A stretch of 64,000 nt of DNA from Gammaproteobacteria bacterium (GTDB lineage: Bacteria; Pseudomonadota; Gammaproteobacteria; JACQPQ01): assembly GCA_016207405.1 (NCBI GenBank), contig JACQPQ010000021.1, positions 4,936 through 68,935 of the forward strand, in the 5' to 3' direction. A program made the translations under genes and the position numbers. This document shows positions 7,396 through 56,226 of the stretch, in pieces; the first letter of the stretch is position 1; every line of letters starts with the position of its first letter. The notes under the pieces were generated by a model. That model saw only the letters and a program-made list of their open reading frames with translations, did no database searches and was not told the DNA's origin.

Positions 7396-7926
7396 AACCA
7401 TTCAGAAATTTCTGCTGATTCGCCACCCTGTGGCTTGACCCATAGGGAACTGCACAAATAGAGACATTTAGTTTTTAATGTGAAATTTTCTAATCGTTCA
7501 TCTATTCCTCCTGAGTAACAAAAAACTCATTGTTGCTTCGCCGCGTTTCGCACGACTTGCAACGACGGAGAGGAAGGGGTAGGTGAACGCGGGGGATTTT
7601 CAAAGAATTAAAAAATAAGTATTATTTCAATCAAGTAAAAGCCATCCAATATGTTGTTGAATGGCCTAACCAACAAGATTTCAGCGCAGATACTTTGTAC
7701 CTATGTTCAAAAAGTAAACCTCGGCGGAAACAATCTCCCCAAAGGTCGCGGGAAAATAAGAAAGTGTAGCTTTTGTAGCCGACAGGGAGCGAAGCTGTCG
7801 AGTTTCGTTTTGTCGGATTTAAGCGCTTACGCTTGAATTCGACCTACAATACTGGCAGCAAATATTCTACGCGTAATTTGATGGTCTGCGGACAAAACGG
7901 TTTTTGGTAAAAGTGACAGGGTTGGT

Positions 7927-8307
7927 ATGACAAGAGACAAACTTTCTGGATTTAGTTTGCTTGAAATGGTCATTGCTCTTTTTGTTGTGGGATTGGGTGT
8001 AGTGGGATTGCTGACGCTTCTTCTTCAAGGAATGGTTTTGATCTCGGATGTGGAATTGCGAGATAAAGCAGTCATACTCGCGCATCGAACGGTGGAAGAA
8101 CTGAAGAGCGATCCCCTCAATGGTCATGGGGTTATCGAGAAGGCGCGAGAAGAACTCGCGAAACTTTCCTTTCCAACAGGGAGTACTTTAGATGTCAGGT
8201 GGGATGAGCCGCACGTCCTAAAAATCACACGACAATCTAAACAGTCTTCTGAAGATTCAGATAAGGTACATGAAGACATTTACTATCAAATTCACTTCAG
8301 CCTGTAG
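7927..8307 (+). CDS. Type IV minor pilin (FimT/PilV-like, prepilin N-terminal methylation domain)
   Basis: It has the GFSLLEMVIALFVVGLGVVGL class III signal with conserved Glu+5. Confidence 0.65.
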   Translation: MTRDKLSGFSLLEMVIALFVVGLGVVGLLTLLLQGMVLISDVELRDKAVILAHRTVEELKSDPLNGHGVIEKAREELAKLSFPTGSTLDVRWDEPHVLKITRQSKQSSEDSDKVHEDIYYQIHFSL

Positions 8308-9241
8308 CCCTAAACGAGGCTATACCCTTCTTGAATTTGTTATAGTGTTAGCACTCGGTTCCTTCATATTATTGTCGCTTACGAAGTTGCTGACCAAAGG
8401 GCATCGTATTTTTGTGAATCAAGAAGAGCGAGCCATTCGAGAAGAAAAAATCCGCGCTGCTTTTTCCGTTTTAAGGGAAGAGCTACAGAATGTGGGGTAC
8501 TTAGGATGTGCCTCCCGTGAAAATGCCAAGCACTTAGTCAATCACTTAAAACCTTCCTTGGGCTTTGACCCTAAGCACTTGTTGAAGGTTGTCCAAGGAG
8601 AGAGCGGGGCGTCCGATACTTTAGAAGTGCGAAGAGCGCTCGAAGCGAGTTCTACAGACGTGATCGTGCCTGTAGAGCAAAGGGATCCGCATTTTTGGGT
8701 AGATAATGTCAACCCTGGATTTTTACAAATCGATCGTTTTGACGTGGTGGGGATCAGTAATTGTGAGCAAGCAGAAATTTTTCTTGCCCAAAAGGAGGGT
8801 TTTGCTCATAACGTTATTTATTATGCACAAATACCTGCTCCAGATGAGGACTTTGTTCCAAAAAACTATCGGGGCCTCCAAAATAAGTCCACTCATTTGT
8901 CTAATGCTTGGGATAGAGGAATGGTTCCAAAAATTTTTAAAATGCATACGGCGCATTATTCCATTGATGGAAGAAGTTTGCTTCAAAATGGCCAGGAATT
9001 GATTTCCGGTGTTACCAACTTTCAAATTCAGTTGGGAGTAAATGAGAAGTGTGATGGAAGCGTAGGGCTGTATGTTGAGCCTCCACTATCCAAATTTTTG
9101 GAAGCGTTCGATTTTTCCAAAGTAGTTGCCATCCGTCTTCAGTTAACTTTTCAAGGAAAAGACTCAGCACCCGTTACTGTGACCGATACCGTCCAATTAA
9201 GGAATTCGAAATGCGGGCCTTTATCTATCGATACTGGTTGA
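8270..9241 (+). CDS. Type IV minor pilin PilW-like
   Basis: It has a GYTLLEFVIVLALGSFILL prepilin motif and size (323 aa) and position (after a PilV-like gene) typical of PilW. The leader is somewhat long (17 aa). Confidence 0.5.
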   Translation: MKTFTIKFTSACSPKRGYTLLEFVIVLALGSFILLSLTKLLTKGHRIFVNQEERAIREEKIRAAFSVLREELQNVGYLGCASRENAKHLVNHLKPSLGFDPKHLLKVVQGESGASDTLEVRRALEASSTDVIVPVEQRDPHFWVDNVNPGFLQIDRFDVVGISNCEQAEIFLAQKEGFAHNVIYYAQIPAPDEDFVPKNYRGLQNKSTHLSNAWDRGMVPKIFKMHTAHYSIDGRSLLQNGQELISGVTNFQIQLGVNEKCDGSVGLYVEPPLSKFLEAFDFSKVVAIRLQLTFQGKDSAPVTVTDTVQLRNSKCGPLSIDTG

Positions 9242-10070
9242 TGGCATTGCGAAGCTTTTCCGTTTCGCGGCGAGCGGCTTCTGCGAAGTTGGCGCCCTTT
9301 GCGGCGAAGATAATGTTGCGTGAGGAGTTGATGATAATGCCCTGACTGCGGCTATCTTTGCCGGCAGAGACAGTCTTCTCCAGATCACCGCCTTGTGCAC
9401 CAATGCCAGGAATAAGAATCGGCATATCGTCGACGAGTTTTCGGACTTCGCGGAGTTCTTCGGGAACCGTTGCGCCGACGACGAGCGCGCAGTTGCTATT
9501 CTTGTTCCACTTACTTGCGACGTGGCGAGCAATAAAGCGATAAAGCGGTTCGCTGTTTACGAGTAAGTCCTGAAACTCCCCTGCGCCTCTATTAGATGTG
9601 CGGCAGAGAACAATGATGCCTTTGTCCGCTCGTGCGAGAAATGGCTGCAGCGCTTCGGCTCCCAGATAGGGATGGACGGTGATCGCATCGGCTTGCAAAA
9701 AATCAAACGCCGCATTCACATATCCCGCGTTGGTATTGCCGATGTCTGCACGCTTGGCGTCGAGGATGACCGGGACGTCGGGAGCTCTGAGATGGATATC
9801 CAGGATGGTTCTGTGTAGAGCCCGAATGCCTTCATCACCATGCGCCTCATAAAATGCAATGTTTGGTTTGTACGCACACACCAGGTCCTGGGTTGCTTCT
9901 ACAATCGCCCTATTGAACGCGATGAGCGTACTCTCGACATTTCCCTTAGACTTTGCGTTTCGGCGTATGGATTCTGGGATCTTGCTGAACTCACTGTCGA
10001 GTCCAACTGAAACAAAGTTGCCGCGAGACCATTGAGCCTCCAGCATTTGTCGAAAATTTTGGTTTCGCAT
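9225..10070 (-). CDS. pyrF: Orotidine 5'-phosphate decarboxylase (type 2)
   Basis: It contains VPVILDAKRADIGNTNAGY (DxKRxDIxxT) at a length of 281 aa. It converges on and overlaps the pilW-like 3' end by 17 bp. Confidence 0.8.
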   Translation of the reverse strand: MRNQNFRQMLEAQWSRGNFVSVGLDSEFSKIPESIRRNAKSKGNVESTLIAFNRAIVEATQDLVCAYKPNIAFYEAHGDEGIRALHRTILDIHLRAPDVPVILDAKRADIGNTNAGYVNAAFDFLQADAITVHPYLGAEALQPFLARADKGIIVLCRTSNRGAGEFQDLLVNSEPLYRFIARHVASKWNKNSNCALVVGATVPEELREVRKLVDDMPILIPGIGAQGGDLEKTVSAGKDSRSQGIIINSSRNIIFAAKGANFAEAARRETEKLRNAINQYR

Positions 10071-13450: not shown

Positions 13451-14434
13451 ATGTCTCACCAAATGGTTGTAAGCGCATTGAACCAGGGAGAGTTTTTCAT
13501 TTATTCGCATCTACAACAATCGCTTGTAATCCCCATTATTTGGGGCGGGTTGTTGTGTGCCGTAAATATTCCTGCGCTCGCTTCAGACAACAGTCTTCTT
13601 CCCATGACAAACATGGCACGATGTACAAAGTGTCATGATGAAAACACCTCCCCCGTTTTACCTTTATTAAAATCTAAACATGCCGTAGTAGCGGACAAAA
13701 GAACTCCATTTGCAGGGGAAGCATGCCAGACCTGTCACGGGTTAAGTGAAGAACACATGAAAGGTTCTGAAGATGGAGGGCCGCGCCCTTCTCCCAGCGT
13801 TCGATTTGGTTCCAAGTCCAACACCCCTCTTTCAACTCAAAATGAATCCTGTTTAGCCTGCCACCGTTCTGGTTTGCGGATGGAATGGAAAGGCAGTCCA
13901 CATGAAATGAAAGGGGTGGGGTGCATTAGCTGTCATACCCTACACACCGGTTCGGATAAAGTTTTAGATAAAAAAAACCAAGCGGAAGTTTGTTTTACCT
14001 GTCACAAAACACAGAGGGCGGAGAGTCATAAGCTTTCGTCTCATCCCATTCAAGAAGGGAAAGTCGTCTGTTCCTCTTGCCATAATCCCCATGGTGCAGT
14101 AGGGCCAAAACTTTTGAGTACCAATACGGTTAATGAAACTTGTTATACCTGTCACGCGGAAAAACGAGGGCCGTTTTTGTGGGAACATGCTCCTGTGAGC
14201 GAAAACTGCATAACCTGTCATACACCTCATGGCTCTATTCATAAGCCGCTTTTGAAATCCAGGGGGCCGTGGTTGTGCCAGCAATGCCATTTGACATCTA
14301 ATCATCATACGAGTGGTGCCTATAACTGTTCTAGTTGTCACTCAACCCGGCGGCTATCGGGCAAAGATTGTTTAAATTGTCATTCAGAGGTGCATGGATC
14401 GAATCATCCTTCTGGTGCAAGGTTAATGAGGTGA
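13451..14434 (+). CDS. Periplasmic decaheme c-type cytochrome, MtrA/MtoA/PioA family
   Basis: There are 11 CXXCH motifs in 327 aa (CTKCH, CQTCH, CLACH, CISCH, CFTCH, CSSCH, CYTCH, CITCH, CQQCH, CSSCH, CLNCH). The size and heme density are typical of MtrA/MtoA. A large OM beta-barrel gene follows immediately. The signal peptide may start at an upstream non-ATG codon. Confidence 0.8.
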   Translation: MSHQMVVSALNQGEFFIYSHLQQSLVIPIIWGGLLCAVNIPALASDNSLLPMTNMARCTKCHDENTSPVLPLLKSKHAVVADKRTPFAGEACQTCHGLSEEHMKGSEDGGPRPSPSVRFGSKSNTPLSTQNESCLACHRSGLRMEWKGSPHEMKGVGCISCHTLHTGSDKVLDKKNQAEVCFTCHKTQRAESHKLSSHPIQEGKVVCSSCHNPHGAVGPKLLSTNTVNETCYTCHAEKRGPFLWEHAPVSENCITCHTPHGSIHKPLLKSRGPWLCQQCHLTSNHHTSGAYNCSSCHSTRRLSGKDCLNCHSEVHGSNHPSGARLMR

Positions 14435-14581: not shown

Positions 14582-16801
14582 ATGAGAATGCATAAAAAGA
14601 TATTGATAGCCATTTTATATTTGGCCGCATCCCCTCTTTGGGCAGAAGATGATCCTTTTTCTTTTGGCCCGAGTGATGGAGGCCTTTCTCTAGAAGCCCC
14701 CGCTCCACCACCACCCAACCGTCCTAAAAGCGAACTTGAAATAGGCCTCGCATATATCAACCGAGATTCCTTTAAATTTGGAGAGTACACGGGACAAGAA
14801 GAAAAAGGCCCTTATGTTATTGGGAATGTAGACATTCATCGCCGAGGTGCTTTTGATAGCAGAACTTTTGACAGTGATGGTGCACTGTATTGGATTTTGA
14901 GAGGTAGAAACTTGGGTCTTACGTCGCGAGAAATGGAGGTGGAGACTGGGGTACAGGGCGATTATAAGGTAGGGATGAGCTATGACCAATTGCCTAAATT
15001 TCAAACGGATACGGCTAAGACGATATTTCGAGGCGTGGGGGGAGATACACTTACATTACCTCCTGGGTGGGTAAGAGCTGACGAAACATCTGATATGACA
15101 GAGCTTAATAATAGTCTTCACGAACTCAAGGTAAGCCATGAACGTAAGAAGTATGGTATGGAGTTTTCCAAATTCTTTTCCCGTGGTTGGGAGTTTAGTG
15201 CGAAGTATCATCGTGAAACGAAAGAGGGGAAAAAGCTTGTAGGGGCCATTATAGAGAGTTGGGACTTTGATGATAGTTTTCATGAACCCACCGTTATTAT
15301 CCCTGAGCCTATCGATTACGTCACTCAACAAGTGGATGTGAAATTGAGCTTTACAGGGAAAAAGAGCCAATTTGAGGGGGGGTATTCCGTATCCTTGTTT
15401 GATAACCACAAAGATTCTCTTATTTGGGAAAATCCATTTTCTGCAATTGGAGGGACGCCTGAAACAAGAGGCAGAATAGGGCTGCCTCCTGATAATCAGT
15501 TTCATCAATTAAAAGCGATCTGGGGATATAACTTCGCCCCAAACACTCGTTTAACAGCCCATGGAACGTTCGGAAGAATGACTCAGGATGAGCGGTTCCT
15601 TCCCTATACCATCAACCCAGATTTGGCCGGTTCAGGCCTTCCTCGTTCTTCTTTAAATGGTAGGGTGGATACCTTAAGTTTTTATACTAAATTATTTTCA
15701 CGGTATGGAAATGCTCTGAATTGGGTGGCCAGTTATCGCTATGAAGACCGGGACAATCGCACGTCAAGGGCTTCCTATATTGGTTATGGTGATGCAGCCG
15801 ATCAAGGGGGGGTAGCAAACGCTAGAACTAATCTTCCTTTTAGTTTCAAGCAGAATCAATTCAAGCTTGATGCAACCTATGAATGGTTTTACCGGACGTA
15901 CTTACAGGGCGGCTATGAATACACTCAAATGGAACGCACGCTTTCAGAAGTGAAGAAAAACCAAGAACATTTATATCGGTTAGAGATCAGACGTAATGCG
16001 TTTGACTCATTAACAGGAGGCATTCGTTTTCTTCAGGCTTATCGGCGGGGATCTTCTTATCGAACCACTGCTCTTCAAACGGCTACGGGAGGGGAACATT
16101 CAATGATTCATCCTCTTCAAAGAAAGTTTTATTTAGCCAGCAAAAATAGAACCCAAGGCGGGGGTTTTATGGAGCTTGATCCAATCGAAGCGGTGACGCT
16201 TCAGTTATCTATTGACTTGTATGAAGATGACTATTTAAAGTCAAAAATGGGATTGCGGAAAAGTATGGGACAAGTTTACGCAATAGATGCGACGATGGTT
16301 CCTAAAAAAGATATTACCACGTATGCTTTTTACACCTATGAACATTCGTATTCCGATCAGAAAGAGCGAGCCTTTGAGACTGTTGCTGAGAGCAATGATC
16401 CACGAAGAGACTGGAATAAAAAAACACGAGAAGGGATAGATACGCTGGGGGCTGGTTTTAAATGGGGTCCTTTTTTGGATCGGTGGGATACGGGGGCGGA
16501 TTATACTTACGCACGCTCGCGTGGAAAGGGCCCTGTGAAAACAGGCTCTGCTTTGGATGCTCCCGATCCACCCATTCGTATGTTAACCACGGAGCTTCAC
16601 CGGTTAGATGTCTTTTTAAAATATAAAATCAAAGAGTCGCTTTCGGCTAAGATGAATGTTCTTTATGAGAAATTCAGTTCGCGGGATTATGCCGTCGATA
16701 AAATACAATTAAACGAAATAGATACGATTTTGATAACGGGTGAAAAGAGCCCAGATTACTCAGTTTCTGTAATTGGACTGTCGTTGTTATATGATTTTTA
16801 G
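14582..16801 (+). CDS. Outer-membrane beta-barrel of a porin-cytochrome complex (MtrB/MtoB/PioB-like)
   Basis: It is 739 aa with a signal peptide (MRMHKKILIAILYLAASPLWA), abundant alternating aromatic beta-strand patterns (YxYxxR, FxF), and a C-terminal LLYDF, which is the OMP Phe terminus. It sits immediately 3' of the decaheme gene. Confidence 0.75.
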   Translation: MRMHKKILIAILYLAASPLWAEDDPFSFGPSDGGLSLEAPAPPPPNRPKSELEIGLAYINRDSFKFGEYTGQEEKGPYVIGNVDIHRRGAFDSRTFDSDGALYWILRGRNLGLTSREMEVETGVQGDYKVGMSYDQLPKFQTDTAKTIFRGVGGDTLTLPPGWVRADETSDMTELNNSLHELKVSHERKKYGMEFSKFFSRGWEFSAKYHRETKEGKKLVGAIIESWDFDDSFHEPTVIIPEPIDYVTQQVDVKLSFTGKKSQFEGGYSVSLFDNHKDSLIWENPFSAIGGTPETRGRIGLPPDNQFHQLKAIWGYNFAPNTRLTAHGTFGRMTQDERFLPYTINPDLAGSGLPRSSLNGRVDTLSFYTKLFSRYGNALNWVASYRYEDRDNRTSRASYIGYGDAADQGGVANARTNLPFSFKQNQFKLDATYEWFYRTYLQGGYEYTQMERTLSEVKKNQEHLYRLEIRRNAFDSLTGGIRFLQAYRRGSSYRTTALQTATGGEHSMIHPLQRKFYLASKNRTQGGGFMELDPIEAVTLQLSIDLYEDDYLKSKMGLRKSMGQVYAIDATMVPKKDITTYAFYTYEHSYSDQKERAFETVAESNDPRRDWNKKTREGIDTLGAGFKWGPFLDRWDTGADYTYARSRGKGPVKTGSALDAPDPPIRMLTTELHRLDVFLKYKIKESLSAKMNVLYEKFSSRDYAVDKIQLNEIDTILITGEKSPDYSVSVIGLSLLYDF

Positions 16802-51601: not shown

Positions 51602-53074
51602 ATGCAAACGGATTTCAAATATCGTATTGGCTTAAAAACTTCCCCCTGGCTTCCTCACCGGCGCGCTCATAGAGGGCTGTTTCGTCTTTCCCTATTGATA
51701 AGCGTTCTCCTTGGAGTGGCATTTCTATTTAAGTGGCTTTGGCAGGAGGAAGATCTTTCTTCTGTGCAAGCTGAAAATTCACAAAACTTGGGAGAGAAGG
51801 GAGAAACCTATTCGGTTATTCCTCTCAAACTTCCTCCACGTGTGGATGTTCCTGTTCAAGCACTGCCGAATGGTCCTGCTTTTATGTCCTTGCCGACATC
51901 TAAGAACGAAAGCTTTTTATCGGCGACCGAGCGCTTGCGAGAACCTTCTTCTCCCCGTAAGGAGAGTGTGACCATTGCCCCAGGGCAAAATCTTTCTCTT
52001 ATTTTCCCAAAACTGGGTCTTTCGGCAGGCATGCTTCAAGAAATATTACAGGTCACTAAAGCACGTTCTGTTTTTGCCAAACTTAAGCCTGGGCAAAATC
52101 TAGAATTCTTTTGGGACAAAAACGGTAATTTTGAAGCGATGCGCATTCCGGTTACGGATGAAACAAGTCTTAAAATCCGTTATGAGAACAATCATCCTGT
52201 CATTGAGAACCAAAAGCGAGTAGTAACCAAAGCAGTGCAGTATCGAGCAGGCACCATTCACAGCTCTCTTTACTGGGCGGGGCACAAAGCAGGGTTATCT
52301 GACAAACTCATCCTTCAGCTTTCGGAAATCTTTGCTTGGGATATTGACTTTGCTCTAGACATCCAGCCGGAAGATTCTTTTCAAGTGCTCTATGAAACCC
52401 TGTATTCGGAAGAAGGGAAAAAAATTCGTGATGGAGATATTCTTGTTGCTGAATTTACCAATCAAGGAAGGCCTTATCGAGCACTTCGCTATACCAGTTC
52501 AGTTGGCGCAAGCAGCTATTACACGCCGGGTGGAGAGAGCCTTCAAAAAGCGTTTATTCGTACACCCGTTGCGTTTAGCGTGATCAGTTCACAGTTTAAC
52601 TTAAGCAGAAGGCACCCCATTTTAGATATTATTCGCGCCCATAAAGGTGTGGACTATGCGGCTCCCTCGGGCACTCCGGTTAAAGCGACTGGAGATGGCA
52701 AAGTGGTGTTTATGGGAAGAAAGGGAGGATATGGAAATACCATTATTCTTGACCACGGGCAACAGTACAAAACGGTTTATGCCCATTTGTTGAAATTTGG
52801 GAGAAGTTTATCGACTGGAAAACGGGTTAGTCAGAATGACCTTATCGGGTTTGTGGGAAAGTCAGGACTGGCGACAGGGCCCCATCTACATTATGAATTT
52901 CAGGTCAATGGGATTCACAAAAATCCTGTGACTGTGCAACTTCCTCGAGCGAAATCTATACTAAAAGCAGAAAAGCCTCTTTTTCTGGAACGCACGAGAA
53001 CCTTGTTGGCTCAAATGGAGTCCTATAAGCAAGGTTATGCTAAACTTACTCCTAGTGAGGTCAAACGGCAGTAA
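51602..53074 (+). CDS. M23-family murein endopeptidase (MepM/YebA-like)
   Basis: It has an N-terminal TM helix, and its C-terminal LytM domain contains HKGVDYAAP, GYGNTIILDH and GPHLHYE. Confidence 0.8.
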   Translation: MQTDFKYRIGLKTSPWLPHRRAHRGLFRLSLLISVLLGVAFLFKWLWQEEDLSSVQAENSQNLGEKGETYSVIPLKLPPRVDVPVQALPNGPAFMSLPTSKNESFLSATERLREPSSPRKESVTIAPGQNLSLIFPKLGLSAGMLQEILQVTKARSVFAKLKPGQNLEFFWDKNGNFEAMRIPVTDETSLKIRYENNHPVIENQKRVVTKAVQYRAGTIHSSLYWAGHKAGLSDKLILQLSEIFAWDIDFALDIQPEDSFQVLYETLYSEEGKKIRDGDILVAEFTNQGRPYRALRYTSSVGASSYYTPGGESLQKAFIRTPVAFSVISSQFNLSRRHPILDIIRAHKGVDYAAPSGTPVKATGDGKVVFMGRKGGYGNTIILDHGQQYKTVYAHLLKFGRSLSTGKRVSQNDLIGFVGKSGLATGPHLHYEFQVNGIHKNPVTVQLPRAKSILKAEKPLFLERTRTLLAQMESYKQGYAKLTPSEVKRQ

Positions 53075-53094
53075 ACTAATGGAGAACTTACATC

Positions 53095-55020
53095 ATGGAC
53101 AAGAAATTTACATGTAGAACTGCGGTACAGGCTTTTTTGTTTCTGCCTTTTAAAAAATGCGCAAAACATACAACAATTTGCTTGATAGGATGCCTATTTG
53201 CAATAGCTTTTGCTCTCTATACTAAAGAAGTTGTAGCAGTGTCGCTTACTGATGGCCATGAGTGTACAAGTTCTACACAGTGCTCCTCTGGCTACTGCTA
53301 CCCTGGTCCAGAAGAGAAGAGTTACTGCATTTCCCGTGATGCAAACTGCGCAAAGCCCGGAACAGCAGGGGTTATGGTGGGAGCTTTGTATTCATACAGA
53401 GGAAAGGAATATATATGCCACTCTTCCGGAGGTCTTCAAAAAGCGGAAAAAGTGTCGTTTCTTGATGGCTTTGAGTGTACAAGTTCTACACAGTGCTCCT
53501 CTGGCTACTGCTACCCCGGTCCAAACCAGAAAAATTATTGTACAGCCAGAGAGCAACACTGTGCTTACCCCCAGTCAGCGGGCACACAAATAAAAACGAG
53601 CTATTTCCATGACAAAAAACTCTATTTTTGCTCAACAGTTCGTGGATTTTCTTCTTCTGGGATGTTGGGGTGTGGTCTTACTACAACTCAAATGGAAAAA
53701 CTTTACCCCTACTTTCAAAAAGGGATTAAGCGATGGACAGATTCCTTCGAAGTGGCAGCTAATTACCCACAAGTTCTTTATGATATGCAAACTTTCACTG
53801 CAACTGTCCTATATTTGGCTGCCTACTGCGGCAATCTCGATATGTTAGACCAGCTTGCTACACTGTATCTCATCCCTTTTTCTTATCTGACAGAAGTAGG
53901 CAAAGAAGACAGCCGGTGGATTACTCCAACAGGAATTCCCCCAACAACAGAAACCTCAAGTCGTTTTATGTATCCTTTTGGATACGATCGGGAACAGTTC
54001 GAACCTTCGACAATAGAACCCTCATCAACACGCGATGAAGAGATGCTCTATTCCAGCCAATTTATATATCCTCTAGCTTATCTTCTACGTCGGCTGGCGG
54101 AACTGCCTTCGAATAACCGCACACCAGCAATGCACAAATACATGACTACGGCCACTCCCCTTTTAAGAGGAACGTTTAATCGATGGATGAACCAACCTTC
54201 TATGTGGACATGGACGCACTGCCGATTTCCTTCCAGCCGATCAAATATGAAAGCGTATACTTTCCCAGAATTCGTTTCAGGCAAACTGCAACGGTCACTC
54301 GGTAGTTCCTGGTGCAATGCTATGCTTGAAATTGAACTGTGGGTTGCAGCAGCGGTAACCGAATTTCTTTCGGCAAACAAACGCGGCATGAACTTGGAAT
54401 TAACGCCACAAGAGACTAACACCTTAACCACTTATGCACAGACCACTCTCAAACTCTTTGAATCCAGATTGTCTGAAGGTATATCTACCAGCCCACTCTG
54501 TGGAGGCCGGTGCTCTTATTTGATTTTAGACCGATATGGGATGAGAGGGCATCCAGACCAACCTGATGCTGCTAGCACATGGGATATCTCTCATGGGAGA
54601 CGCCTTGTTCAATTTCTGGAAACCATGTATGCCCCCGAAAACACAAACATCACTCAACCCACTAAAAATGGAAAATGGGTGAAAACTCAATTCGCTAACG
54701 CGATTATCTATCAAATATTTAATGGATCTTGGGATCACCCTCGGTTTGCCAATTTTATGGATGGAGTTAATGTGCACTACCGCTCGTATGAACCTTTCGC
54801 ACTGAGCGATCAATACGCAGACATCGGGTATGCTTTTTGGCAGAGATATAATCGTGATATCACCGAACTCAACAGCTCTTTTTTAAGTATCCTCGAAGGC
54901 AAGAAATCCGATTCCTTTTATGACCACATTCGTCTGAAGGAAGGTCCAGAAGATTTTTACAAAACCGTGTACCACTATTTGGCTTTTGTAGCTTCTCTCA
55001 GTCACCCATGGAGAGAGTAA
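53095..55020 (+). CDS. Membrane-anchored hypothetical protein with two tandem Cys-rich repeats and a large uncharacterised C-terminal domain
   Basis: It is 641 aa with an N-terminal TM helix (ICLIGCLFAIAFALY). It carries two 71-aa repeats with 6 Cys each (DG[HF]ECTSSTQCSSGYCYPGP...). No catalytic motif recognised. Confidence 0.55.
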   Translation: MDKKFTCRTAVQAFLFLPFKKCAKHTTICLIGCLFAIAFALYTKEVVAVSLTDGHECTSSTQCSSGYCYPGPEEKSYCISRDANCAKPGTAGVMVGALYSYRGKEYICHSSGGLQKAEKVSFLDGFECTSSTQCSSGYCYPGPNQKNYCTAREQHCAYPQSAGTQIKTSYFHDKKLYFCSTVRGFSSSGMLGCGLTTTQMEKLYPYFQKGIKRWTDSFEVAANYPQVLYDMQTFTATVLYLAAYCGNLDMLDQLATLYLIPFSYLTEVGKEDSRWITPTGIPPTTETSSRFMYPFGYDREQFEPSTIEPSSTRDEEMLYSSQFIYPLAYLLRRLAELPSNNRTPAMHKYMTTATPLLRGTFNRWMNQPSMWTWTHCRFPSSRSNMKAYTFPEFVSGKLQRSLGSSWCNAMLEIELWVAAAVTEFLSANKRGMNLELTPQETNTLTTYAQTTLKLFESRLSEGISTSPLCGGRCSYLILDRYGMRGHPDQPDAASTWDISHGRRLVQFLETMYAPENTNITQPTKNGKWVKTQFANAIIYQIFNGSWDHPRFANFMDGVNVHYRSYEPFALSDQYADIGYAFWQRYNRDITELNSSFLSILEGKKSDSFYDHIRLKEGPEDFYKTVYHYLAFVASLSHPWRE

Positions 55021-55026
55021 ATGTAG

Positions 55027-55070
55027 GCCGGGGCAAGCGCGTCTTTTTGCACGGCCCCGGCATTCTTTTC
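55027..55070 (+). terminator. Intrinsic terminator (GCCGGGGC...GCCCCGGC followed by attcttttc)
   Basis: It is an 8-bp GC stem with a long loop, immediately after the stop of the 641-aa gene. Confidence 0.5.
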
Positions 55071-55095
55071 TCTAACCCCTTATTTTTTCTGCAGA

Positions 55096-56226
55096 ATGCC
55101 AATCTCATCCTTATTCATCGGGGCACTGTCCGGTACGAGTATGGACTCCATAGATGCGGCTGTATTTAATTTTGTTTCTTATCCTCCAGAGCTCATTGGG
55201 CATTGTGAACGTCCTTTTCCTGTCTCTCTTCGAAAAAAAATTCAAATGATTGTGGACAGCCGCAAGCTAGCCCTTAAGACTTTTATTCAACTGGATGTCT
55301 GTATGGGGAGAGAAATTGCAAAAACCGTGAACACATTACTCAAAATCACTAGTCTTTCGAAAGCCGCTATTGCCGCGATTGGGAGTCATGGGCAAACGCT
55401 CTACCATGCACCGAACTCTCCTTATCCCTCTTCGTTACAGATAGGTGATCCCAATATTATTGTCACCCAAACCGGTATAACGACGGTTTCAGATTTTAGG
55501 CGGCGGGATATGGCTTATAAAGGACAAGGCGCGCCTCTAGCCCCTCATTTACATGCCACTCTCTTTAGAAGCCGAGAACACGACAGGATTATTTTAAATA
55601 TCGGTGGCATTGCGAATGTGACGATATTGCCTGCAGATCCCAATTTACCTATTACGGGTTTTGATACGGGGCCAGGCAATCTCTTGATGGATGCGTGGAT
55701 ATCCCATCACAGGCCACATTCACCTTACGATCAGGATGGAAAATGGGCAGCAGAAGGTAAAGTTCAGTCAAAACTTCTCCATCATTTACTCAAGGATCCA
55801 TATTTTAAGCGGCCGTCACCCAAAAGCACAGGCAGAGAATATTTCAATTTAGGATGGTTACTCGAACGACTTAAATTCTTTAAACCCTTCTCTCCGAAGG
55901 ATGTTCAAGCGACTTTGCTGGCACTGACTGTAGAAAGTATTACCATGGCGCTTCAAAGATGGGGGAGCTCGCCAAACGCTCAGATTTATGTGTGTGGAGG
56001 AGGGGCTTTAAATCCCATACTGATCTTGCAGCTTCAGAAAAGGCTTGTGAACCATTCTATTCAGAGCACGGAAGTGTTAGGCATCCTTCCTAAGCATCTG
56101 GAACCGTTACTCTTTGCGTGGCTCGCCAAACAAACGCTCGAACGAAAAACAGGCAATATACCCACGGTCACCGGCGCTCAGAGAGAGACTCTATTGGGGG
56201 GAATTTATCTTGCTAACTTTTCGTAG
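55096..56226 (+). CDS. anmK: Anhydro-N-acetylmuramic acid kinase
   Basis: It has the N-terminus FIGALSGTSMDSIDAA, an ASKHA fold and a length of 376 aa. Its TAG stop is the first triplet of a REP-like palindrome. Confidence 0.85.
   Translation: MPISSLFIGALSGTSMDSIDAAVFNFVSYPPELIGHCERPFPVSLRKKIQMIVDSRKLALKTFIQLDVCMGREIAKTVNTLLKITSLSKAAIAAIGSHGQTLYHAPNSPYPSSLQIGDPNIIVTQTGITTVSDFRRRDMAYKGQGAPLAPHLHATLFRSREHDRIILNIGGIANVTILPADPNLPITGFDTGPGNLLMDAWISHHRPHSPYDQDGKWAAEGKVQSKLLHHLLKDPYFKRPSPKSTGREYFNLGWLLERLKFFKPFSPKDVQATLLALTVESITMALQRWGSSPNAQIYVCGGGALNPILILQLQKRLVNHSIQSTEVLGILPKHLEPLLFAWLAKQTLERKTGNIPTVTGAQRETLLGGIYLANFS

Follow-up and report, generated by a model that had tools for sequence, protein, structure and literature searches.

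A gammaproteobacterial exported protein with two six-cysteine modules: an old duplication bearing signs of recent short-tract gene conversion

The gene and its tandem repeat

In this article, we focus on a single gene, which encodes a 641-amino-acid (aa) exported modular protein, and on the tandem duplication found inside it. The gene lies at positions 53095..55020 (+ strand) of a stretch of 64,000 nucleotides (nt) from contig JACQPQ010000021.1 of a gammaproteobacterial metagenome-assembled genome (MAG; assembly GCA_016207405.1), and this whole stretch is what we will call the window. The gene was taken from the list of open reading frames (ORF) of the window, and its product is 100% identical to the NCBI entry MBI4356698.1, which is annotated as hypothetical (MAG Gammaproteobacteria bacterium HY559_02290). 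Four parts can be distinguished in the protein: an N-terminal export region (aa 1-44, 53095..53226, +), two six-cysteine modules (aa 53-120, 53251..53454, +, and aa 124-191, 53464..53667, +) and a 449-aa C-terminal domain predicted to be all-alpha (aa 193-641, 53671..55017, +).

The modules belong to two units of 213 bp, 53251-53463 and 53464-53676, which follow each other in register within the ORF. The tandem duplication of a six-cysteine unit with this period had been claimed in the initial annotation, and its coordinates and content are indeed as described there. The same is true of the near-identity of the first 57 bp of the copies, since 54 of those 57 nt are identical (57/60 over the first 60). 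An exact run of 45 nt is common to both units (53259-53303 and 53472-53516), and the remaining 153 nt are identical at 67 positions (44%). At the protein level, 33 of the 71 residues are shared overall; counted over 62-residue units, 19 of 20 residues agree at the 5' end and 14 of 42 in the 3' part, and each unit contains six cysteines. A weaker similarity reaches 13 nt further upstream of the units (10/13), and a separate repeat search pairs 53225-53369 with 53438-53582 (74% identical over 145 nt, spacing 213). Tandem Repeats Finder makes no call in the gene because the repeat is too diverged overall. A 44-mer of the shared run occurs exactly twice in the window and in none of 100 shuffles; neither a further occurrence of it nor a further module copy could be found in the window, the latter with a hidden Markov model (HMM) run on the six-frame translation.

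Both copies are recognized by the HMM of the module family, copy 1 with 96.7 bits, close to the family consensus, and copy 2 with 83.9 bits. Copy 2 keeps all the invariant positions of the family (G2, C5, C11, S13, C16, P20, C26, C33, P36, G40 and C56).

An ORF of 113 aa in the +2 frame (53252-53593) overlaps the repeat, and the peptide SVQVLHSAPLATAT is present twice in its translation. It was considered as a separate gene and rejected, since it arises from the duplicated patch itself.

An old duplication and a probable recent conversion

The patchy identity of the two units had been attributed in the initial annotation to gene conversion or to a very recent duplication. These two options can be told apart by looking at codons whose amino acid is common to both copies. 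In the first 20 codons, 18 of the 19 such codons are identical, versus 4 of 14 in the next 42 codons (Fisher p=1e-4), and the nucleotide identity over the compared codons is 95% in the 5' part versus 46% in the 3' part. Frameshifted or gapped alignments recovered no hidden identity in this 3' part. Moreover, copy 1 shares 27 of 42 residues of its 3' part with a module of another protein, P0002, which is encoded on another contig, versus 14 of 42 with copy 2, and the 3' part of copy 2 is no nearer to copy 1 than to the modules of other proteins. Because the synonymous sites are saturated outside the patch and because copy 1 is nearer to foreign modules than to its neighbour, the duplication is not recent. 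At the level of sequence comparison, this establishes that the two modules stem from an old duplication, and the "recent" of the initial annotation has to be dropped.

The near-identical 5' patch has another history. As the synonymous identity is confined to it, we infer a recent non-reciprocal recombination, that is, a short-tract intragenic gene conversion, and of the two options initially put forward this is the one that fits the patchy identity. Gene conversion is expected to leave a synonymous excess in one tract together with a discordant signal beside it, and both are found in the two units. One copy would have overwritten about 52 nt of the other: the minimal putative tract is 53259..53310 (+) on the copy-1 side and 53472..53523 (+) on the copy-2 side, with 51/52 identity including the 45-nt exact run, and it may extend to 53238 and 53451, respectively, which would bring it to up to 75 nt if the similarity from 53238 is included. 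Through the 45-nt identical tract, a 213-bp unit could now be lost or gained in frame.

Three other explanations of the repeat have to be weighed against this old duplication followed by conversion. In the first, the whole 213-bp unit would have been duplicated very recently, and the 3' two-thirds of one copy would then have diverged very fast under relaxed or positive selection. The 3' two-thirds of copy 2 are the most divergent of the family (no other module shares more than 16 of the 42 residues), and this could suggest an accelerated evolution. However, synonymous positions are randomised in the 3' part and not in the 5' part, which selection on the protein is unable to achieve in one segment alone, and the greater proximity of copy 1 to other proteins' modules speaks against this scenario as well. 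We thus regard it as largely refuted and very improbable.

The second explanation, which we judge just as improbable, does without recombination: the 5' identity would result from strong purifying selection on the best-conserved motif, CxxxxxCxSGYCYPGP, combined with codon bias. It is true that conservation in the family (alignments A3 and A6) is highest in the 5' part of the module. However, other multi-module genes carry similar CxSxYCYPGP motifs, and some of their copies have only 3/15 to 8/15 identical codons, so neither codon bias nor selection at the peptide level is the explanation. In the same way, module pairs of the gene L001 whose amino acid sequence is the same here have common runs no longer than 11 nt, when another pair of the same gene shares 77 nt. 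Finally, when the columns of the aligned pair were shuffled 100,000 times, the longest run obtained was of 27 nt, as against the observed 45 nt. The third explanation, an assembly artefact in which the repeat or its patch would come from mis-assembled short reads, draws on the single metagenome-assembled contig without an independent copy, but it is extremely improbable, since a collapse or expansion would yield identical whole units rather than a 52-nt patch in two very different in-frame units, all family-invariant residues are kept in each unit, usual reads are longer than the 45-nt repeat, and comparable mosaics exist in independent assemblies of other samples.

A diversity-generating retroelement, with the repeat as its variable or template region (VR/TR), was also considered and rejected: the differences within the patch are CA to TT and T to C, instead of being confined to adenines of a template, and the rest of the units has diverged at all bases. 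No unexplained ORF of the size of a reverse transcriptase was found among the neighbours at 48-60 kb, of which the large ones were assigned by eye (rpsI, rplM, gmk, yicC, rph and mutS) or through Pfam (the genes of the M23, AnmK and Fic proteins).

In the DNA of five other multi-module genes, the modules were compared within each gene in search of exact runs, with p values obtained by column shuffling. In L001 (7551-9911), which encodes P0002, runs of 77 nt and 41 nt were found, which 0 of 5,000 shuffles reproduced. The same holds for L002 (5317-7521), which encodes P0004 and contains runs of 80, 42 and 35 nt, the 42-nt one linking modules that are 1.7 kb apart, across the large domain. A gene of Parcubacteria, L006 (3736-6789), has runs of 56 nt and 38 nt (p <= 0.001), and L003 has one of 23 nt (p 0.002). 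In L007 there is no clear tract, the longest runs being of 10-12 nt (p 0.02-0.14). Mosaic homogenisation by short-tract conversion thus appears, from these exact runs, to be common in the module family, and it is most extreme in the gene of the window, whose units have diverged the most outside the tract.

The tandem repeats of bacterial surface proteins such as streptococcal alpha C/Rib and M or staphylococcal SasG/Aap are known to evolve in concert, through intragenic recombination or conversion. As in these surface proteins, extracellular modules of one gene exchange sequence here, which leads to exact stretches and to a variable copy number. Unlike in them, homogenisation is here confined to about 52-75 nt out of 213, the rest of each unit has the low identity given above, and there are only two copies. 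The mechanism is ordinary, well-known concerted evolution of repeats, of which this gene is a clean small example in mosaic form. What is new is the two unannotated domain families that make up the protein, and their distribution.

The six-cysteine module and its family

The consensus of the module is NGxxCxxxxxCxSGYCYPGPxxxxYCIAxxxNCAxPGTxG..FG.SY.YNG..Y.C..G.GL. Eleven positions, including the six cysteines, are invariant in an alignment of 18 modules (A3), and nine positions, including five cysteines, in an alignment of 22 sequences (A6). The whole 641-aa protein has only 8 relatives in a word-indexed search of 5.8 billion proteins, and the module of about 68 aa has so far been seen in about 15 proteins; as the profile searches with A3 and A6 were word-indexed as well and returned one new protein, then none, its abundance is underestimated. 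No sequence model of Pfam, NCBIfam or the PDB covers the module, and a PDB sequence search with profile A6 gave no match or only noise. The module was not found in a scan of viral contigs, and the 641-aa protein has no match in PHROGs or PADLOC.

The initial annotation had proposed that repeat number be compared in relatives and that the structures of both parts of the protein be predicted, and both were done. In the closest subfamily with the all-alpha domain, the module is present in 0-4 copies: P0006 has none, P0002 has four, and P0004 has one at the N-terminus and two at the C-terminus. The module also occurs outside this subfamily, in proteins of quite diverse architecture. Two right-handed beta-helix proteins (Beta_helix/NosD), P0007 and P0008, have 4 and 1 copies, one of these proteins also having a SUEL lectin domain. 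The Parcubacteria-type proteins of L006 (3736-6789, 1017 aa) and L009 (1292-5131, 1279 aa) each have 3 copies near the C-terminus and a PG_binding_1 domain at each end. In Sneathiella glossodoripedis JCM 23214, a secreted protein of 408 aa (L007, 5899-7125) has 3 copies and, after them, an eCIS_core/DUF4157 domain (Pfam E 4e-7) in which an HExxH motif is present, which makes for a toxin-like or zincin partner. A single copy is found in a membrane-anchored protein of 210 aa (L011), and P0009, of 98 aa, is a standalone module. Each of the proteins just named begins with a signal peptide or a transmembrane segment. As these fusions show, the six-cysteine unit is a rare mobile extracellular module that is joined to different exported domains.

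These relatives are found on a Parcubacteria MAG, on groundwater contigs, in an alphaproteobacterium and on a contig whose neighbouring genes are of archaeal type (GatD, an archaeal-type ProRS and S_layer_C), so that the family seems to cross the boundary between bacteria and archaea. On this last contig, the P0004 homologue of L002 lies directly upstream of the S_layer_C protein gene (7562-9571), with the archaeal-type GatD and ProRS on the same contig. In L006, separate short CxxxxxCxxGxC motifs can be seen upstream of the modules.

AlphaFold2 predicts the pair of modules of our protein with a mean predicted local distance difference test (pLDDT) of 86.9, and of 82-97 (copy 1) and 81-92 (copy 2) per block of 10 residues. 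The predicted fold is beta-rich, with a small beta hairpin followed by a three-stranded sheet. Its best Foldseek neighbours in the PDB are mostly binders made of beta-hairpin repeats, namely domain V of glucansucrases, the CROPs of TcdA and TcdB, and the choline-binding modules of pneumococcus, though these matches are weak (E 0.009-0.2) and offer a lead rather than a place in any of these families. They are repeats of the CW_binding_1 type, tandem beta hairpins rich in aromatic residues that act as targeting units on enzymes or toxins. Unlike the module, these repeats are of about 20 residues and lack disulfides, and Pfam finds no CW_binding_1 (PF01473) match in the 641-aa protein at E <= 1. 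The cysteine spacing of the first 25 residues of the module is like that of Colipase/Dickkopf-type domains and gives faint Pfam matches to Colipase (PF01114)/Colipase-like (PF15083), which remain far from the threshold of 27 bits (10.5 bits, E 0.52 here; 16.2 bits, E 0.012 for P0003); Foldseek gave no support for this link.

The C-terminal domain

The C-terminal domain had been presented as 450 aa with no recognisable motif. It was characterised here through a profile search, AlphaFold2 and Foldseek. The lack of an annotated motif stands: no Pfam or NCBIfam model lies over the domain in any of the 50 members scanned, PDB sequence searches with profiles A4 and A2 gave no match at E <= 10 or only noise, PHROG and PADLOC contain no match, the viral library of Foldseek yields nothing, and tblastn against plasmids and phages gives no match. 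The domain is not an orphan, however. A profile built from the six closest sequences and searched against 1.84 billion representatives detects 542 clusters at E <= 1e-3, of which 192 at E <= 1e-30. Among the 50 family members, the partner domains are Laminin_G_3 (9/50), FG-GAP, BACON, dockerin, the sorting tail of the type IX secretion system (T9SS), Big and CarboxypepD_reg, which is the typical company of secreted carbohydrate-active proteins. Fusions to ConA-like lectin domains are frequent in the family.

In these 50 sequences, five residues of the domain are invariant (Y229, W275, W364, D497 and H500) and twelve are conserved in at least 90% (E315, Q322, R363, N408, R458, D479, R503, N535, Y539, N553, N559 and R563). 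That so many of the conserved residues are Arg, His, Tyr, Asp or Asn is a hint that the substrate may be acidic. The AlphaFold2 model is all-alpha, with a predicted template modelling score (pTM) of 0.81 and a mean pLDDT of 72. This mean is low mainly because of a private insertion of about 49 aa, rich in Pro, Thr and Ser (aa 267-315, nt 53893-54039), which has a pLDDT below 50 and is absent from all close homologues.

In the PDB, the Foldseek matches at the top of the list are (alpha/alpha)6 glycosidases (GH116, beta-1,2-glucanase, GH146, GH100 and GH63) and designed alpha/alpha toroids, so that the modelled domain looks like an alpha/alpha toroid. Its predicted toroid-like shape, its secretion and the lectin- or carbohydrate-binding module (CBM)-like domains of its relatives are reminiscent of the six-hairpin (alpha/alpha)6 glycoside hydrolases (GH) and of the toroid lyases. 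Unlike these, it has no significant match in sequence or in fold (Foldseek E >= 0.19), and the sequence models of Pfam, NCBIfam and the PDB place it in no described GH or polysaccharide lyase (PL) family. The domain is probably the catalytic or effector part of the protein, and we propose, with low to moderate confidence, that it represents an undescribed family of glycan-active enzymes.

Export and proposed function

The limits of the export region come from a hydropathy scan and from the comparison with homologues. The initial annotation had placed a membrane anchor at the N-terminus, and a hydrophobic segment is indeed present, with a core of 17 residues (aa 26-42, nt 53170-53220); it is its role as an anchor that is doubtful. 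The basic residues K20, K21, K24 and H25 precede this core, A38-F39-A40 stands at its end, and the homologues begin with classical signal peptides that end in AHA, ASA or SSA directly before the first module. For these reasons, the N-terminus is probably a cleaved Sec signal peptide, or possibly a signal anchor. A lipoprotein was also considered, as L-I-G-C at aa 30-33 fits a lipobox, and was judged unlikely, the residues after the Cys being strongly hydrophobic.

The protein would thus be exported through Sec as a signal sequence followed by two beta-rich modules and a large all-alpha domain. The modules would be accessory units for targeting or binding, which would bring the catalytic or effector part into contact with a substrate located outside of the cytoplasm. 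Their ligand is most likely a glycan or a cell-wall component, to judge by the fusions to enzyme-like or lectin domains and by the conserved aromatic residues, and the C-terminal domain would most likely be a glycan-active enzyme with an alpha/alpha-toroid fold. The disulfide-stabilised, surface-exposed binding module foreseen in the initial annotation is plausible in the form of an extracellular accessory module, given its mobility among exported proteins and its confidently predicted beta-rich fold.

Another role of the modules, compatible with the conversion, would be that of a rigid disulfide-braced stalk or spacer without binding activity, like the cysteine-rich repeats of the TraA protein of Myxococcus. 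TraA, an outer-membrane-exchange receptor, contains tandem arrays of a short secreted motif of the CxxxxxCxSGxC type, presumed to be disulfide-bonded, which sit between a PA14 recognition domain and a C-terminal MYXO-CTERM sorting tag (PMC3325183). The corresponding model, TIGR04201 (Myxo_Cys_RPT), describes a Myxococcales repeat of about 22 residues, three of them invariant cysteines, which often comes together with MYXO-CTERM (PMC3325183). Our module contains a motif of this type, which gives a weak match at aa 127-144 (E 0.0034, 17.5 bits, below the curated cutoff of 25). A copy number that ranges between 0 and 4 next to an unchanged catalytic domain is also in keeping with a spacer. However, the module has about 68 residues, six cysteines and a beta-rich second half (NCAKPGTxG..FG.SY.YNG..Y.C), the proteins that carry it lack both PA14 and the MYXO-CTERM tag, and it occurs outside of Myxococcales, in Gammaproteobacteria, Parcubacteria, Sneathiella and a contig with archaeal-type neighbours. 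It is also found at the C-terminus, past the catalytic domain (P0004, P0008), and alone (P0009), positions that do not suit a spacer, and the aromatic residues (Y15, Y17, Y25 and the F/W-G-x-S-Y-x-Y-N-G stretch), as well as the Foldseek neighbours, point to binding. A mere spacer function is therefore unlikely.

Taken as a whole, the reading of an exported modular protein in which an old duplication was followed by a recent conversion, and in which binding modules precede a glycan-active C-terminal domain, seems to us fairly probable. Several points weigh against it. The protein is found on one metagenome-assembled contig only, without an independent copy; the bounds of the conversion tract are given as a range only, and either copy may have been the donor. 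The structural matches are below significance for the modules (E as above, template modelling (TM) score about 0.2) and for the C-terminal domain (E 0.19 or worse, the best hits being at 0.19-0.7, TM about 0.3). The modules could be a rigid spacer instead of binders, the protein may be retained in the periplasm or the inner membrane, short of the cell surface, and the gene neighbourhoods of seven relatives contain no conserved operon or functional clue.

In descriptive terms, the gain is a six-cysteine module and an alpha-toroid-like domain, both without an entry in Pfam, NCBIfam or the PDB. Should the module bind a glycan or a component of the cell wall, it would represent a new binding-module family, used by candidate-phyla bacteria with a poorly understood surface biology, and if the large domain is an enzyme, it would be a new carbohydrate-active family. 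A bolder proposal joins a new family of disulfide-stabilised CBM-like modules, a new family of glycan-active enzymes (the 542 clusters), portable surface targeting and a scaffold kept by conversion, and as a combination we consider it possible but rather doubtful. According to this proposal, the module would be a portable surface-targeting device common to groundwater Parcubacteria, to a few proteobacteria and to organisms that have archaeal-type genes. Short-tract conversion would hold the half with the disulfide knot uniform and leave the ligand-facing beta half free to diverge, as in copy 2; if true, conversion and divergence together would build two binding specificities on one scaffold.

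Transcript signals and genomic neighbourhood

The annotated start of the gene at 53095 is backed by a Shine-Dalgarno-like GGAGA, read from the sequence at 53081..53085 (+), 9 nt before the ATG. Downstream of the gene, there is a probable intrinsic terminator (55027..55072, +), in which a hairpin (GCCGGGGC...GCCCCGGC) is followed by a U-rich tail (folding -23.5 kcal/mol, z = -3.0); a scan for consensus terminators missed it because its loop is long.

Peptidoglycan-related genes flank the gene on both sides. Upstream, a MepM-like M23 peptidoglycan endopeptidase is encoded at 51602..53074 (+; Pfam LysM_OapA, Csd3_N2 and Peptidase_M23). The gap read between its stop (53074) and the start at 53095 is of 20 nt, the scan found no terminator-like site between the two genes, and they are probably co-transcribed. 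Downstream, at 55096..56226 (+; Pfam E 1.9e-128), lies the gene of AnmK, an anhydro-N-acetylmuramic acid kinase involved in peptidoglycan recycling. The further genes are, in order, rpsI, rplM, gmk, yicC and rph before the gene, and erpA, Fic and mutS after it; neighbours were named by eye from the ORF translations, with Pfam support for some. The GC content does not deviate here, and the window is ordinary chromosome of a gammaproteobacterial MAG.

Two other loci of the window can be mentioned. At 14582-16801 (+), an outer-membrane porin of the MtrB/PioB type (Pfam E 6e-143) suggests that the MAG encodes a conduit for extracellular electron transfer, of which the porin would be a part, and the ORF upstream of it (13451-14434) is possibly MtrA-like. 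Finally, the Fic/DOC gene (56944-57471) lies within a patch of low GC content (0.36-0.39 versus about 0.44) and is adjoined by two tRNA genes (57570-57643 and 57653-57744), so this region (56944-57744, -) may be a small acquired islet.

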